From sequence record PV946933.1: 64,000 nucleotides of DNA; one strand, written 5' to 3'. The notes beneath the pieces were generated by a model that saw nothing but the letters and a program-made list of their open reading frames with translations, was not told the origin of the DNA and did not search any database. A program made the position numbers and the translations under genes. The DNA comes from a phage. Positions 8,521-15,537 of this stretch are shown here, one piece after another (position 1 is the stretch's first letter; every line of letters starts with the position of its first letter).

Positions 8521-8604
8521 AAATTTTTCACAAAACGGTTTACAAGCATAAAGCTTTATGGTACTATACAACTATCAACTGATACAGATTTGGAGAATAA
8601 AATG
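8521..8604 (+). repeat. PeSL-like promoter-leader cassette, copy 1
   Basis: AAATTTTTCACAAAACGGTTTACA...TATGGTACTATACAACTATCAACTGATACAGATTTGGAGAATAAAATG; near-identical blocks at 34937-35025 and 63352-63436. Confidence 0.8.
8538..8567 (+). promoter_or_regulatory. T4-type early promoter (in PeSL copy 1)
   Basis: GTTTAC-N18-TACTAT. Confidence 0.7.
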
Positions 8605-9570
8605 AAAACTGTAACTATCAATAAGGGTATCTACTTCGGTAAAGAAATCTCTGGAACTTTTGAGCTCTTAGGCGAATGGTTCCCAGATAATGCTCCAGTA
8701 GATGCACAAGGAGATGGTAAAGTTTTTGTTGAAATTGACGGTAAACGTCGCGGTGTTTGGGTTTACAAATCAGATATTTCATATGATGGTGTAAAAGTTG
8801 AAGAAGTTAAAGAATCATATGAAGATATGAAAACCCGCATTAATAAAAGATTTAATGTTATGGGAATGATGACGAATGGTATTATTAATGGAAATATTCG
8901 TTCATTAATTATCTCTGGCGCAGCAGGTATTGGTAAAACGTATTCTTTAGATAAAGCTTTAAATAAAGCAAATGATAATGGATACATTGAATATAAAAGC
9001 ATTAATGGTAAAATCTCTGGTATTGGTCTTTATGAACAGCTTTGGAATAATCGTGAAGAGAATTCTGTGCTTTTGATTGATGATGTGGATGTTTTCTCTG
9101 ATATGGACATTCTTAATCTTCTGAAAGCTGCTCTGGACACTGGAGAGACCCGTAAAGTTTGCTGGAGCACTGCATCTTCTTACTTAGAAGAAAAAGGCAT
9201 TGACCGTGAGTTTGAATTTAAAGGAACGATTGTTTTTATCACAAACGTTGACATTGACCGCGAATTAGACCGTGGTACTAAACTTGCTCCACATTTACAA
9301 GCATTAGTGTCCCGCTCAGTTTATTTAGATTTGGGTGTTCACACTAATGAAGAAATTATGGTCAGGGTTGAAGATGTTATTCTTTCAACCGACATGATGC
9401 AAAAGCGCGGTCTTTCTGATGAAGAAACTTATAAAGCATTATCATGGATGAAAGTCAATGTTAATCGTTTACGCAATGTTTCACTGCGTACTGCTCTTTA
9501 TCTTGCTGACTTTATTATGACCGACAAAAACGGTTGGGAAGAAATTGCTGAGGTTACTCTTCTGAAATAA
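8602..9570 (+). CDS. AAA+/P-loop ATPase (322 aa from the ATG; track start 8590 is TTG)
   Basis: Walker A SGAAGIGKT, Walker B VLLIDDVD, sensor-like IVFITN; driven by conserved promoter-leader cassette. Confidence 0.6.
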   Translation: MKTVTINKGIYFGKEISGTFELLGEWFPDNAPVDAQGDGKVFVEIDGKRRGVWVYKSDISYDGVKVEEVKESYEDMKTRINKRFNVMGMMTNGIINGNIRSLIISGAAGIGKTYSLDKALNKANDNGYIEYKSINGKISGIGLYEQLWNNREENSVLLIDDVDVFSDMDILNLLKAALDTGETRKVCWSTASSYLEEKGIDREFEFKGTIVFITNVDIDRELDRGTKLAPHLQALVSRSVYLDLGVHTNEEIMVRVEDVILSTDMMQKRGLSDEETYKALSWMKVNVNRLRNVSLRTALYLADFIMTDKNGWEEIAEVTLLK

Positions 9571-9974: not shown

Positions 9975-10037
9975 TGGTTTACAAGACTGTTCCTCTGTGG
10001 TACTATACAACTATCAACTACGGAGGAACACAAAATG
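9966..10037 (+). repeat. PeSL-like cassette, partial copy 5
   Basis: GTTTACAAG...TGTGGTACTATACAACTATCAACTACGGAGGAAC then ATG. Confidence 0.6.
9976..10005 (+). promoter_or_regulatory. T4-type early promoter
   Basis: GTTTAC-N18-TACTAT; inverted repeat TGTTCCTC 9987-9994 / GAGGAACA 10022-10029 includes RBS. Confidence 0.65.
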
Positions 10038-10562
10038 AACGCTAAAGATATTTTCAACTTGGTAAATTACAACGATGGTAAATTTAAATCTGAAGCACAA
10101 AGTAAGTTCTTTAATGACATCTCAATCGGAGGTGAAATCACAGTTGATGGAGGACAAATTTACAAATCCCGCTGGAATTGGATCGTTATTATTGATGAGA
10201 TCGGTATTGTAGAAATTTACAAGAATACGAATAAAAATCGTACATTACACTGGTCTCGTGATACTAACGAACAGTACAAAAAGGATAAAGCATCTAAATT
10301 ATCTCGTGTAACTCAAGAAGATATTGAGTTCATCAAGAAAGATATTTTAATGTATGATAATTTAATTGCTGAAGAGCAAGCTGTTATTGATAAATTTGAT
10401 GAGATTAAAGCTTCTCGTGAAATTCCTGATTTTATGAAAGAATCAGTAAATGAACGATACACTCTCATTTCAGAGCGTATTGAAACTTACAAAAAGCAAA
10501 GAGCTGAACGCCAAAATACTCTTCGGAAGTTTGAAGAACGGTTAAAGACGGTACTCGCATAA
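10035..10562 (+). CDS. hypothetical protein with C-terminal coiled coil (175 aa)
   Basis: Early promoter 9976-10005 and RBS GGAGG; heptad-like C-terminus. Confidence 0.5.
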   Translation: MNAKDIFNLVNYNDGKFKSEAQSKFFNDISIGGEITVDGGQIYKSRWNWIVIIDEIGIVEIYKNTNKNRTLHWSRDTNEQYKKDKASKLSRVTQEDIEFIKKDILMYDNLIAEEQAVIDKFDEIKASREIPDFMKESVNERYTLISERIETYKKQRAERQNTLRKFEERLKTVLA

Positions 10563-11019: not shown

Positions 11020-11082
11020 GGAAAATATGTCAGTAGTAATTAATAATGTCAATGCAGTAATTAAATCTTTAGTTAATAAAAA

Positions 11083-11916
11083 ATGATGAATGAATGGACT
11101 GTATTTCGTCGTGGAGAGCCAGATAAATTTTTTCATAGATTTAACCCAACTTTGGATTTGAATGTTATTGACAGAGATGTTCATGCCGAAATTTTAGATA
11201 AGTTTAAAGTTGATATTGGCTTTGGATTAGAAAAACATTTACAGCGAACAAGCGGATCTGGAATGAGTTTATCTAATCGCATTATGAAAGCCCTTAATAA
11301 AATTGGAGCGTTGTCTCGCATTAATGCGAGTGAAATCCTTCGTAATTATAATAAAGGATATGACCTTTATGGTCGACTAATGCCGAAGTTATCATTTGAC
11401 CAAATGATTGCAGATTTGTGGGAAAATCAGCGACGATTATTAGCATTAGGCGCTCGATTAGCTAAAGGTCTAGATAAACAAATGATTTTTAAGACCAATA
11501 ATACAGAAGACCTTAAATGCTTTAAATTTAGTATTCGTGGAGATGATTATTACATCAGAGCTCACTCTACAGATTATGTTAATATGGGGCATCATCTCTG
11601 TTTAGCTTTTGAAGTTTTAAAAGAAGCTGGAACGTTAGAATATTCATCTGGTGCTAAATGCCCGATTGGTTCAAATTGTATTTTGATTTATCGCCCGGAT
11701 GAATCCAGTTCAACTAAATTGCCTACGAAACCTGTACCAGTTCGTAGTAATGAAAAACATTCTGAACAAATTGATTATTTTAATAAGCAAATTGAAGAGC
11801 TGAATATTTCTATTCAACAGTATGACGATGAAATTTTCAGACTATCTGGATTGAGTAGTAAAGCTAAATCTGAGCGTGAAAAGTTAATTAAAATTGTTGA
11901 TTTACTTAAATCTTAA
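11083..11916 (+). CDS. paralog family member 1: variable N-domain plus C-terminal coiled coil (277 aa)
   Basis: C-terminal coiled coil; internal motif ALSRINASEILRNY resembles the motif in the next three ORFs. Confidence 0.5.
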   Translation: MMNEWTVFRRGEPDKFFHRFNPTLDLNVIDRDVHAEILDKFKVDIGFGLEKHLQRTSGSGMSLSNRIMKALNKIGALSRINASEILRNYNKGYDLYGRLMPKLSFDQMIADLWENQRRLLALGARLAKGLDKQMIFKTNNTEDLKCFKFSIRGDDYYIRAHSTDYVNMGHHLCLAFEVLKEAGTLEYSSGAKCPIGSNCILIYRPDESSSTKLPTKPVPVRSNEKHSEQIDYFNKQIEELNISIQQYDDEIFRLSGLSSKAKSEREKLIKIVDLLKS

Positions 11917-11924
11917 GGAACACC

Positions 11925-12953
11925 ATGAAAACTCGTTCTCAAATTGAAGATATGGTTCGTACTGCCAGTGATACTCGTAATGTTATGACATTTTTGTGTG
12001 AAAATAATTTAGACCCTGATAAAGTTAATCGTGCTATTCATCACTTTAAATATCTGAACAGCAGCGAATGGGTGCGTAATTTTAGCGAAGCGGGGTATAT
12101 TACACAAATGACGGCTCGTGAGCAGCTCACCGATTTCTGTAAAACTATTGATTATAAAAATCCTCTATTTGTTCAAGGCGTTGGTCAAAGTAAGGTCGAT
12201 TTATCATCTGGATTTTTCAATCCAAATCATTATCGTATTGAATGGAGATTTATTGCTCTGTTCCGTAGACAATTAAAGCAAATTTTATCAACTGCGAGTC
12301 GATTAAAAGGTTCTGATATTAACTTAAAGAATCTGAAATTTGATGGTTATACTCTTCAGATGGAAGTAAGACCATTAAAAGAAAATAATAGAACTGCACG
12401 AATTAGCTTTAAACCTAATACAAAAAATTCTCTTTCAATTTGCGAATGCCTTAAATCGCAGTTGACAGAAGCATTTAAGTATATGGATGTTGTTGCCGCT
12501 GTTCAGTCTAAGATTTTACCTCGTTTTGAGCGATTTAAATTAGACACAACAACATATGAACTTGATATGATCGTTTCATTTAAATACGATTTTTTGAGAA
12601 AGGACGAAGTCCCGCAAGAGAAAAAGCAGGAAGTGCAAGATAACTTAAATTTAAATTTATCCAATTACTCATCAAACGATCCTAAATTTTGGATGTATAG
12701 CTCAGGTAATGAAGATGCATGGAAATTCAATAAAGTGAATTTTCTTCCTGTTGAAAATCCGAGTCTTAAACCTGTTGAAAAATGGCATGCAGATGCGATT
12801 GAGAAGTCTCTTAAAGCAGTAGATGATGAACTCGTTAAAGCAACTAATGAAATGTTAGAAGTTGAAAAGGCGCTAGAAAAAGCTCAAGAAAAAGTCAAAA
12901 ATCTCACGAAGCAACGTTCTAAACTGAACAATGCACTAAATGCACTGAACTAG
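11925..12953 (+). CDS. paralog family member 2 (342 aa)
   Basis: N-terminus MKTRSQIEDM; motif TAREQLTDFCK; C-terminal coiled coil. Confidence 0.55.
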   Translation: MKTRSQIEDMVRTASDTRNVMTFLCENNLDPDKVNRAIHHFKYLNSSEWVRNFSEAGYITQMTAREQLTDFCKTIDYKNPLFVQGVGQSKVDLSSGFFNPNHYRIEWRFIALFRRQLKQILSTASRLKGSDINLKNLKFDGYTLQMEVRPLKENNRTARISFKPNTKNSLSICECLKSQLTEAFKYMDVVAAVQSKILPRFERFKLDTTTYELDMIVSFKYDFLRKDEVPQEKKQEVQDNLNLNLSNYSSNDPKFWMYSSGNEDAWKFNKVNFLPVENPSLKPVEKWHADAIEKSLKAVDDELVKATNEMLEVEKALEKAQEKVKNLTKQRSKLNNALNALN

Positions 12954-12982
12954 TTTACTTTGCCACAAGGATGTGGTATAAT
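12953..12982 (+). promoter_or_regulatory. T4-type early promoter
   Basis: GTTTACTTTGCCACAAGGATGTGGTATAAT; same core as 59090-59119. Confidence 0.7.
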
Positions 12983-13010
12983 GTTCTTACTTTCTACTGA
13001 GGAGATTAAT

Positions 13011-14012
13011 ATGACTCGTAACGAATATATCAAATCATTCAATAGCGTTATTGATGATAAAGCTATACCGATGTTTGGTCAAAATAGCGTTATTTCTATT
13101 ATCAATCAATGGCTCAATAGTGTTGACGCAAGTATTGTTTCTTCTGTTAAATTTATTCATGAAATTCGTAAAATTTCTAGCCGTGTAGATAAAGATGTTA
13201 TCAAGAAAACCTTTAAAGAGTCTCGTCTTCTTTCATATTTGGTTAATCGGGATATTCTTGGTAATTTTGGGAAAGAAATTAAACGAACCAAAGATGTAGT
13301 AGGATATAATTGGTTCGGTGATGTTAATTCTTATCATCTTAATAATAAAGAAGACCCTGAGAATATTTTTACTCGTCGTTGGATTAGTAATTTCAGGCTT
13401 TTCAAAGGACAGATTCTAAAATCAGCTTCTAAATTATGTTATGGCGATTATCGTCAAATTCATCCTTTGGCTTCTGATATGATCATCATAAAAGAATATG
13501 AACTTGATAAAAATAAAGTAGCTATTTTTGTGAATTATGGATTTTTTACACCAGAAACTAACCAAAAGAACATTAATAAATTTTTCTCAATTGCTAGCAC
13601 TATAACTCGTCAATTAGAAACCGCATTACTTTGTATGGAAACAGTAGAAAATATTCATACGTATCCTTTTAAGAATATATGCGGTTGGGAAGGATATAAA
13701 ATTGTAGTTAGTCTTCGTGAAGTGAAATGTGCTTATTCATTAACTGATAAAGAAATTTATCAACAAAAATGTGAGGAAATTGTGAATACTCCTAAAGAAG
13801 AAACTACACTTGAGGAACTAATGGATAATCTTGACGATTCGCCTGAACCAGTAGAAATTCGTCCAGAAGTTATTGCACTAGAAAAAGCTTATAAAGAAGC
13901 TCTAGAAATTTCTAATAAAGCGCAGAAAGAATATGAGCAGGCTAAAAGGATTTGGGAAGAATCTGTTAATCGTCTGGATCGTCTTGAACAAGCTTTACAG
14001 TTAATTAAGTAA
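13011..14012 (+). CDS. paralog family member 3 (333 aa; track start 12960 overlaps its own promoter)
   Basis: Early promoter 12953-12982; N-terminus MTRNEYIKSF; motif KESRLLSYLVNRDILGNFGK; C-terminal coiled coil. Confidence 0.55.
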   Translation: MTRNEYIKSFNSVIDDKAIPMFGQNSVISIINQWLNSVDASIVSSVKFIHEIRKISSRVDKDVIKKTFKESRLLSYLVNRDILGNFGKEIKRTKDVVGYNWFGDVNSYHLNNKEDPENIFTRRWISNFRLFKGQILKSASKLCYGDYRQIHPLASDMIIIKEYELDKNKVAIFVNYGFFTPETNQKNINKFFSIASTITRQLETALLCMETVENIHTYPFKNICGWEGYKIVVSLREVKCAYSLTDKEIYQQKCEEIVNTPKEETTLEELMDNLDDSPEPVEIRPEVIALEKAYKEALEISNKAQKEYEQAKRIWEESVNRLDRLEQALQLIK

Positions 14013-14064
14013 TTTAAAGCCAAGGATGGCTCGGAGTATAAATCATTAACCAAGTGAGAAGAAC

Positions 14065-14994
14065 ATGAAAACTCGTAAACATTATATTGATTATTTTGAC
14101 AGTCTTATTACTAAACATCGTAATTATCAGATCGGACACAGAGCAGTAATCAATAATATTCTTCGTGATTTCCTTCAATATGTTGGCCAGGAAAATCATA
14201 TCTGTAAAGATACTCAAAACGCCTATTCTCATTCATTAGGCAATTTGCTTCAATGGTTTAAACGTTCTCGTCTGTTATCTTCTACTGTAGCTCGTGATAA
14301 CATTGAAAACTTTATGAAGCCGAGCTTCATTAAATCTACGACATCTATAACCGATTTGGTTGAATTTACTATTGTTAACGATGTTAAAAAGACCCATTTG
14401 GCTGATTGGTTATCTACCATTCCTGAAACTAAATTTGCTGATAAATTCGCCTGTCAATTCAATGACCAAGTGAATATGCTTTTTAAGCATGCTCGCAAAC
14501 TGTTTACCGCGGGTGATGACCGTACAAATACAGTTCATGTTAAGGACTGGGTTATTGCTGATGAAGTAACACACAAGCCAGGTGGTTCATCAGTATTAAT
14601 TAATATCCAGGTTCCTTATTATTACTCACGTAATCTCGGCACCATGACAGCTAGAGAAATTAATAAGCACAACAAAACTATTCGTTCGTTGTCTTATAAA
14701 CTCCGCATGATGCTAAAAATTATGGATGTAGTGGAAATGTATGATGAAACCGAAGATAATGGTTCAATGCTGTACAGTTCACGCATTCTAATTAAACTGA
14801 AGAACCCTAATACGTATAAGCCAGTTGTAAAAGAACCTAAAGTAGAAAAGGTTGATAACTTGAGCGAAGAACGTGAATATCTCAATGCTCGTTTGATTGA
14901 AGTTGAAGCCCAGATTGCCGAACACACTAAATTGTTAAAAGCTCTTAATGCAAAAGCAAATGGTTTACGTAATGCTATTGAGGTATTGAAATGA
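14065..14994 (+). CDS. paralog family member 4 (309 aa)
   Basis: N-terminus MKTRKHYIDY; motif KRSRLLSSTVARDNIENFMK; C-terminal coiled coil. Confidence 0.55.
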   Translation: MKTRKHYIDYFDSLITKHRNYQIGHRAVINNILRDFLQYVGQENHICKDTQNAYSHSLGNLLQWFKRSRLLSSTVARDNIENFMKPSFIKSTTSITDLVEFTIVNDVKKTHLADWLSTIPETKFADKFACQFNDQVNMLFKHARKLFTAGDDRTNTVHVKDWVIADEVTHKPGGSSVLINIQVPYYYSRNLGTMTAREINKHNKTIRSLSYKLRMMLKIMDVVEMYDETEDNGSMLYSSRILIKLKNPNTYKPVVKEPKVEKVDNLSEEREYLNARLIEVEAQIAEHTKLLKALNAKANGLRNAIEVLK

Positions 14995-15308
14995 AAAAGC
15001 GCTTATTAGAAGATATTGCAGCTTCAAGTAATTCCAGTCTAATTAAAATTATTATGGCTGGTGAAGAAGACGATCTAGAAATGCGTGGAAAGATTCATGG
15101 TTGTGACGATCTAGACTTTAAACCTCCTGCTTGGGATGCCATTATGGCTATGGTTGAACGTCGCGAAAGGGCTTCTAAAAACGTTCCTAATTGTCCTGAA
15201 TGCGGTACTGAACAGGTTCAATTAGTCCATTGGCAGACTAGTAATCTTCGTTATAAATGCCGTCATTGCAAACACCGATTTAACCGAGAAGAAAATGACA
15301 AAGCGTAA
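14991..15308 (+). CDS. zinc-ribbon protein (105 aa)
   Basis: CPECG-x17-CRHC four-cysteine ribbon. Confidence 0.5.
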
Positions 15309-15537
15309 AGAATATATGGAGACTGCTGAAAAGGCAGTCCGTGAATTAGCAATAGCGTATTATAATGAACACGGTAAATTTCCTGATAGATATAGCGTGC
15401 TTAAATCTGCTTTAACTCGTTCATATAAAAATATGCTATCAGAAGTAAGTGATATTATATACAAACATAAAGAACAAACGGGCCAAAGTCTTGATTACGA
15501 CGAGACTTTTAAACAAGTACTAGGAATTAAGGAATAA
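15295..15537 (+). CDS. hypothetical protein (80 aa)
   Basis: ORF immediately upstream of nrdC. Confidence 0.4.

Follow-up and report, generated by a model that had tools for sequence, protein, structure and literature searches.

The nrdC region of T4, the reference lytic phage, is emerging as an island of anti-defence genes, in which nrdC.1 inhibits Septu, its neighbour 49.2 inhibits OLD, and nrdC.5 overcomes Dsr1. T4 nrdC.5, described as early, rescues a T4 deletion clone when supplied from a plasmid, so that the clone grows again on a host with the Dsr1 system of Escherichia coli ECOR17 (Srikant, Guegler and Laub, eLife 2022; PMC9391042). Dsr1, a SIR2 NADase, has a TPR sensor that reportedly recognises the phage major capsid protein (bioRxiv 2026.01.04.697583). 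DSAD1 of SPbeta-like phages, an inhibitor of the sirtuin defence DSR2, neutralises a SIR2-type NADase by binding and serves here as the working model for NrdC.5. We analysed a phage DNA of 64,000 nucleotides (sequence record PV946933.1; the whole stretch is hereafter the window), in which nrdC.5 lies in a tandem array of four genes upstream of nrdC. The four encoded proteins are ancient paralogues, and the remaining three stand as good candidate inhibitors of further bacterial defences.

The 3.9-kb stretch that holds the array is 96.9% identical to phage vB_EcoM_SA20RB and matched 657 phage records, almost all from T-even coliphages; on sequence grounds the window is assigned to a T4-like phage of the genus Tequatrovirus. 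The array comprises four consecutive open reading frames (ORFs), all on the + strand:

11083..11916, + strand: gene A, nrdC.6 orthologue; 277 amino acids (aa) as it stands; PF26899 / phrog_2257; the most divergent superfamily member.
11925..12953, + strand: gene B, nrdC.5 orthologue; 342 aa; Pfam DUF7235 (PF23882), phrog_2351; anti-Dsr1 activity is published for the T4 protein.
13011..14012, + strand: gene C, nrdC.4 orthologue; 333 aa; PF26897 on close relatives, phrog_1435.
14065..14994, + strand: gene D, nrdC.3 orthologue; 309 aa; PF26897 on close relatives, phrog_1435; RB14/Mosigvirus allele class.

We assign genes A, B, C and D as orthologues of T4 nrdC.6, nrdC.5, nrdC.4 and nrdC.3, respectively, and use the T4 names below. 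By BLASTP the proteins are 98%, 94%, 96% and 61% identical to their T4 reference counterparts, the last figure reflecting a divergent allele class, and the gene order matches the annotation of T4, RB32 and RB14, with the four genes between nrdC.7 and nrdC.2/nrdC.1/nrdC. The ORF list gives a TTG at 12960 as the start of nrdC.4; the ATG at 13011, behind GAGGAG, yields 333 aa and agrees with T4 nrdC.4. A preliminary description made from the sequence alone had listed four consecutive ORFs of 277, 342, 333 and 309 aa, which exist as it stated, and had wondered whether they might be nrdC.x genes of T4, which they proved to be. Its remark that no function had been assigned to such a family was outdated, since nrdC.5 has one.

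Besides its 94% identity to T4 NrdC.5, the window's gene B shares the genome position of that gene and matches DUF7235 over its full length (414 bits, E=5e-124; gathering threshold 30 bits). The other three have the coiled coil and apparently the fold plan of T4 NrdC.5 but only ~15-25% identity to it, and none of them passes the DUF7235 threshold on its own. PF26897 (NrdC.4 and NrdC.3) and PF26899 (NrdC.6) are assigned by proxy, being precomputed on all close relatives (up to 98% identical). Pfam (PF26899, PF23882, PF26897) and PHROGs (2257, 2351, 1435) thus hold NrdC.6, NrdC.5 and NrdC.4 with NrdC.3, respectively, as three unrelated families of unknown function, whereas here they form one superfamily. 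No sequence or fold similarity to DSAD1 was found for the four proteins. nrdC.1 and 49.2 of T4 and T6 occupy the same early, dispensable and plastic stretch around nrdC, and they too are phage-specific and without known domains; they are unlike the array in sequence, small (80-106 aa) and single-copy, and NrdC.1 (80 aa, 15295-15537) has no BLASTP similarity to the four proteins.

BLASTP among the four proteins detected similarity only between NrdC.4 and NrdC.3 (26% over 231 residues, E=3e-7) and nothing between NrdC.6 or NrdC.5 and other array members. As BLASTP was insufficiently sensitive, profiles were needed; family alignments were therefore built from database relatives of each protein and compared profile to profile with hhalign. 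NrdC.4 and NrdC.3 aligned with P=1.4e-14 over 205 columns. NrdC.5 aligned with the merged NrdC.4 and NrdC.3 profile at P=1.9e-8 (probability 95%), its residues 45-197 falling on residues 60-219 of NrdC.4, wholly outside the coiled coil, and reversed-profile controls gave P values of at least 0.07. With family-only profiles, NrdC.6 against NrdC.5 was negative (P=0.2), because the NrdC.5 alignment had an effective number of sequences (Neff) of 1.7. This failure was resolved once divergent NrdC.5-like, NrdC.4, NrdC.3 and single-copy members were added, the wider profiles drawing on distant members from a representative-protein search and on divergent copies of other genera. NrdC.5 then matched NrdC.4, NrdC.3 and the others with P=6e-14, and NrdC.6 matched the same set with P=9e-9 and the profile of everything with P=5e-7 over core columns 46-150 alone. 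In a separate hhalign run, the NrdC.6 alignment against that of NrdC.5, NrdC.4 and NrdC.3 gave a probability of 82% and E=1e-5 over 101 core columns.

Single proteins bridge the families as well. P0270, from Klebsiella phages of Marfa type, is matched by the NrdC.5, NrdC.4 and NrdC.3 hidden Markov models (HMMs), and CIP9_194, the single-copy member of a Kanagawavirus, is matched both by the NrdC.6 HMM (1e-8) and by that of NrdC.5, NrdC.4 and NrdC.3 (7e-14). The conserved internal motif quoted in the preliminary description is present and in register in the profile alignments, and two further collinear motifs accompany it, the second being [FW]xxxxxxhLxxAxxLxxGD and the third QLxxALxxMDVV. An MKTR/MTR N-terminus had likewise been ascribed to all four; M(K)TR is common to NrdC.5, NrdC.4 and NrdC.3 but not to NrdC.6, whose apparent start, MMNEW, reflects a frameshift described below. 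Profile-profile comparison, structural topology and bridging sequences agree that the four are true paralogues of one superfamily. The earlier call of tandem divergent paralogues thus stands, and of the alignments proposed to check it, BLASTP joined only NrdC.4 and NrdC.3 whereas profile-profile comparison joined all four. Uniting nrdC.6, nrdC.5 and nrdC.4/nrdC.3 in this way appears to be new, as no paper or entry joining them was found in the literature and databases.

The proteins appear to share one build. A helical region at the N-terminus is followed by a conserved pair of helices and by a two-layer alpha/beta module (hairpin-helix-hairpin); a disordered linker, whose length varies, then leads to a heptad coiled coil of ~50 residues that ends L..A[LI]..LK. 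AlphaFold2 models of NrdC.6 and NrdC.5 run through the same series of elements. Several helices at the N-terminus lead into a loop of poor order, after which come two paired helices (~105-128), a beta hairpin, another helix (~168-185) and a second hairpin; a disordered stretch of 60 residues in NrdC.5 and about 20 in NrdC.6 then links this part to a long C-terminal helix. In a structure search of BFVD, both models matched uncharacterised proteins of ~220-375 aa from other T4-like phages, with hosts in Pectobacterium, Erwinia, Klebsiella, Acinetobacter, Aeromonas, Enterobacter and Yersinia; the target A0A0A0PZG4 was common to NrdC.6 (E=3e-7) and NrdC.5 (E=3e-5). Template-modelling scores were 0.35-0.48, for models of these two proteins only, and such moderate values are expected because the models are flexible and multi-part.

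The coiled coil of about 50 aa noted earlier at each C-terminus is borne out. The last 49-56 residues of all four proteins keep the heptad register without a break, phased to the C-terminus and with the same end positions, and 79-94% of their a and d positions are hydrophobic (shuffle p 0 to 0.011):

11764..11913, + strand: coiled coil of NrdC.6 (last 50 aa); a/d hydrophobic fraction 0.86, p<0.0005; model helices 227-253 and 258-276.
12783..12950, + strand: coiled coil of NrdC.5 (last 56 aa); a/d hydrophobic fraction 0.94; model helix 286-341.
13863..14009, + strand: coiled coil of NrdC.4 (last 49 aa), from heptad analysis.
14845..14991, + strand: coiled coil of NrdC.3 (last 49 aa), from heptad analysis.

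Comparison of the paralogues shows the strongest conservation in the three helical regions that bear the motifs and the weakest in the hairpins, loop and linker. The motif helices form a conserved scaffold; paralogues, and likewise alleles, differ from one another in the N-terminal helices, loops, hairpins and linker. One nrdC.6 homologue, P0001 of Shigella phage Sf25 (378 aa), carries an internal tandem duplication of ~82 residues (IRAHSTDYVN...QIEEL repeated) that doubles the second half of the globular module.

No enzyme or characterised family was found for the four proteins in Pfam, NCBIfam, PADLOC or PDB, and a search of PDB by sequence returned nothing; the weak Pfam, NCBIfam and PADLOC matches were to coiled-coil families or below threshold. 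A tyrosine recombinase N-terminal SAM-like (core-binding) domain (Phage_int_SAM_1/XerD) in NrdC.3 was considered and rejected: residues 30-86 scored 14-18 bits against thresholds of 22 to 330, and the match occurred in only four of 51 family members, with a best E of 0.058.

The family is confined to T4-like (Straboviridae-type) phages, always at the same locus, upstream of nrdC.2/nrdC. Copy number, which the preliminary description had proposed to compare across T-even phages, is one in distant genera and three or four in the others:

Marfavirus: 1 copy, a single member.
Kanagawavirus: 1 copy, a single member.
Jiaodavirus: 1 copy, a single member.
Gaprivervirus: 3 copies, nrdC.6, an nrdC.5-like gene and nrdC.4.
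Dhakavirus: 3 copies, nrdC.6, an nrdC.5-like gene and nrdC.4.
Mosigvirus: 3 copies, nrdC.6, an nrdC.5-like gene and nrdC.3.
Tequatrovirus: 4 copies, nrdC.6, nrdC.5, nrdC.4 and nrdC.3.

The expansion tracks the coliphage lineages. The core profile of NrdC.5, NrdC.4 and NrdC.3 found only 18 matches among 1.84 billion representative proteins, some of them new distant members of 315-340 aa that begin with M(x)TR, contain all three motifs and end alike at the C-terminus. The duplications are old: the nrdC.6, nrdC.5 and nrdC.4/nrdC.3 lineages had already separated before Tequatro-, Mosig-, Gapriver- and Dhakavirus diverged, and the separation of nrdC.4 from nrdC.3 is the most recent. The family HMMs matched no other ORF of the window. 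A fifth ORF (10035-10562, nrdC.8), singled out earlier for its coiled-coil ending, does have a heptad-rich tail but is rejected as a family member, with no family HMM match at E<=1.

Selection was assessed on seven Tequatrovirus genomes, the T2 record being excluded for its many split genes. The ratio of non-synonymous to synonymous substitution rates (dN/dS) is 0.08 for nrdC.6, 0.17 for nrdC.5, 0.22 for nrdC.4 and 0.30 for nrdC.3, set beside 0.01-0.09 for nrdC.10, nrdC.9, nrdC.8, nrdC.1 and nrdC, 0.24 for nrdC.7 and 0.19 for nrdC.2. In sliding windows of 30 codons, the motif helices lie near 0 and the N-terminal helices, the second hairpin and parts of NrdC.3 reach 0.4-0.9; none exceeds 1. 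Selection within the genus is thus purifying, and the pattern is one of a conserved scaffold with looser surfaces, in which positive selection is not demonstrated. Recent rapid diversification, as first proposed, is unsupported by either the gene-wide or the sliding-window values; "rapidly diversifying" was an overstatement for lineages older than their genera.

nrdC.3 exists in Tequatrovirus as two allele classes that are ~60% identical, and the class found in the window also occurs in Mosigvirus at ~85% nucleotide identity. The first ~60 residues are conserved between the classes and divergence starts beyond them, a pattern that suggests an intragenic recombination boundary. The adjacent nrdC.2 is likewise unusually variable (minimum 67% identity). 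A 299-aa protein, P0161, encoded on three contigs of up to 167 kb, joins NrdC.5 residues ~146-271 to NrdC.3 from ~137; it is a natural deletion at a KVN/QVN microhomology in which nrdC.4 was lost. In-register recombination between paralogues was rejected as its origin, the junction being out of register.

Gene A does not begin where nrdC.6 does. Its first codons lie in a separate frame:

11028..11087, + strand: short ORF carrying the 19 codons with which nrdC.6 truly starts (MSVVINNVNAVIKSLVNKK), with a GAGG Shine-Dalgarno sequence upstream.

The run of A at 11079-11084 has six residues in the window and seven in T4, RB32, P922 and T2, and because of this missing nucleotide the first 19 codons are severed and the protein seems to start with MMNEW. 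The TGA of the short ORF overlaps the ATG at 11083; most NrdC.6 relatives are 296 aa long and read through. Behind the frameshift may lie an error in sequencing, a genuine mutation or a slippery homopolymer. The T4 reference nrdC.6 (NC_000866, 10067-10894, minus strand, 275 aa) has a different frameshift, near the 3' end, which swaps the coiled coil for IFLFNNMMMKFSDYLD, and the intact coiled-coil frame persists downstream in another frame. In the T2 record (PV958097) nrdC.6, nrdC.4, nrdC.7 and 49.2 are each split into two ORFs, probably through homopolymer assembly error and not as real pseudogenes.

Which function could such an array serve? We favour, as the probable explanation, an ancient tandem family of coiled-coil proteins that bind and inhibit host immune proteins. 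This explanation builds on the gene identity, paralogy, architecture, phyletic pattern and selection regime set out above, and on the published anti-Dsr1 activity of T4 nrdC.5. The four proteins would be early-expressed, non-enzymatic binders; the coiled coil would mediate oligomerisation, and the variable globular part would bind a host immune protein directly and block it. Each paralogue, NrdC.6, NrdC.4 and NrdC.3 included, may be tuned to a different target, and with one target per paralogue the array would widen the host range. Since a paralogue disarms Dsr1, nrdC.6, nrdC.4 and nrdC.3 are good candidates when inhibitors of other bacterial defences are sought. The preliminary guess of an anti-defence role holds for one member, T4 nrdC.5 (PMC9391042). 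The genes themselves and the function of nrdC.5 were already known; it is the unification, with the resulting candidacy of the three further genes, that appears new. Unification yields three concrete candidate counter-defence proteins and helps to tell the scaffold of NrdC.5 from its likely specificity surfaces; with one function published and positive selection unseen, this is a useful lead and not a surprise.

Several points tell against the binding-inhibitor explanation. The anti-Dsr1 activity of the window's own gene B is inferred from its 94% identity to T4 NrdC.5, and the searchable literature yielded no mechanism for nrdC.5, whether direct binding or indirect. No experiment or complex prediction was found that ties NrdC.6, NrdC.4 or NrdC.3 to a defence system. 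The dN/dS values are below 1 throughout, with nrdC.6 as slow as its housekeeping neighbours, and lack the positive-selection signature of an arms race, and the mean predicted local distance difference test scores of the AlphaFold2 models (68 for NrdC.5, 75.5 for NrdC.6) give moderate confidence only.

A more ambitious version of the binding-inhibitor explanation, which we regard as doubtful, is a diversified "anti-sensor" toolkit, in which duplication from one to four copies of an oligomeric scaffold held by the coiled coil gave inhibitors of several host pattern-recognition proteins. Its possible targets include the Dsr1/Avs7 group, with a common capsid-sensing TPR domain and different effectors. 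If this is true, nrdC.3, nrdC.4 and nrdC.6 would encode three new anti-defence proteins, each directed at a target of its own.

The alternative that survives best, though we hold it to be rather unlikely, accepts the paralogy and leaves counter-defence to nrdC.5 alone, the other three acting otherwise early in infection, for example in host take-over (through RNA polymerase or another host complex), being partly redundant, or decaying. In its favour are the low dN/dS of nrdC.6, like that of conserved neighbours, the different nrdC.6 frameshifts in the window and the T4 reference, the split nrdC.6 and nrdC.4 of the T2 record, and the fact that the entire nrdC.1-6 block can be deleted in a laboratory host. 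However, intact frames, scaffold motifs and the coiled coil are kept in all four genes over hundreds of genomes; purifying selection speaks against decay; the T2 record has nrdC.7 and 49.2 split as well, and its frameshifts may thus be assembly errors; and the locus is packed with proven anti-defence genes.

Alternatively, the family might mask the trigger, by binding or chaperoning a phage structural protein (for Dsr1, the major capsid protein) in place of an immune protein, so that the sensors miss it. The reported recognition of major capsid proteins by the Dsr1 sensor makes this conceivable, but we judge it improbable: nrdC.5 is early and the T4 capsid protein is synthesised late, no capsid-protein fold occurs among the structural matches, and likeness to neck and tail proteins does not rise above noise. 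A capsid mimic is unsupported for the same want of a capsid-protein fold.

Finally, that the four are unrelated proteins sharing a coiled-coil tail and a few chance motifs, as the BLASTP blanks of NrdC.6 and NrdC.5 and the three separate Pfam and PHROGs families might imply, is scarcely credible and already refuted by significant profile alignments in the non-coiled-coil core, failing reversed-profile controls, the bridges P0270 and CIP9_194, the identical secondary-structure order and common Foldseek targets of NrdC.6 and NrdC.5, and a gene order conserved between genera.

The intergenic gaps of the array hold promoter-like sequences:

12954..12982, + strand: promoter-like site of T4-early type (TTTACT, 17 nucleotides, TG-TATAAT) in the gap between nrdC.5 and nrdC.4; a consensus match only.

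This site would supply nrdC.4 with its own transcription start. A weaker promoter-like pair, TTTAAA...TATAAA, lies between nrdC.4 and nrdC.3 (14013-14050), and both genes may thus have starts of their own.

Around the array, RB32 (positions 1781-2500 of locus L004) and RB14 (1779-2498 of locus L007) carry a gene for a seg-like homing endonuclease between nrdC.10 and nrdC.9; the window, T4, P922 and teqskov lack this gene. nrdC.10 itself (8590-9570) encodes 326 aa with weak matches to P-loop or STAND-like NTPases (nSTAND3, AAA_16, AAA_22), none of which reaches threshold. nrdC.2 (14991-15308), the gene immediately downstream of the array, overlaps nrdC.3 translationally; it encodes a small protein that has a zinc-ribbon signature, CPxC...CxxC, at its C-terminus and many sub-threshold matches to zinc-ribbon Pfam families.

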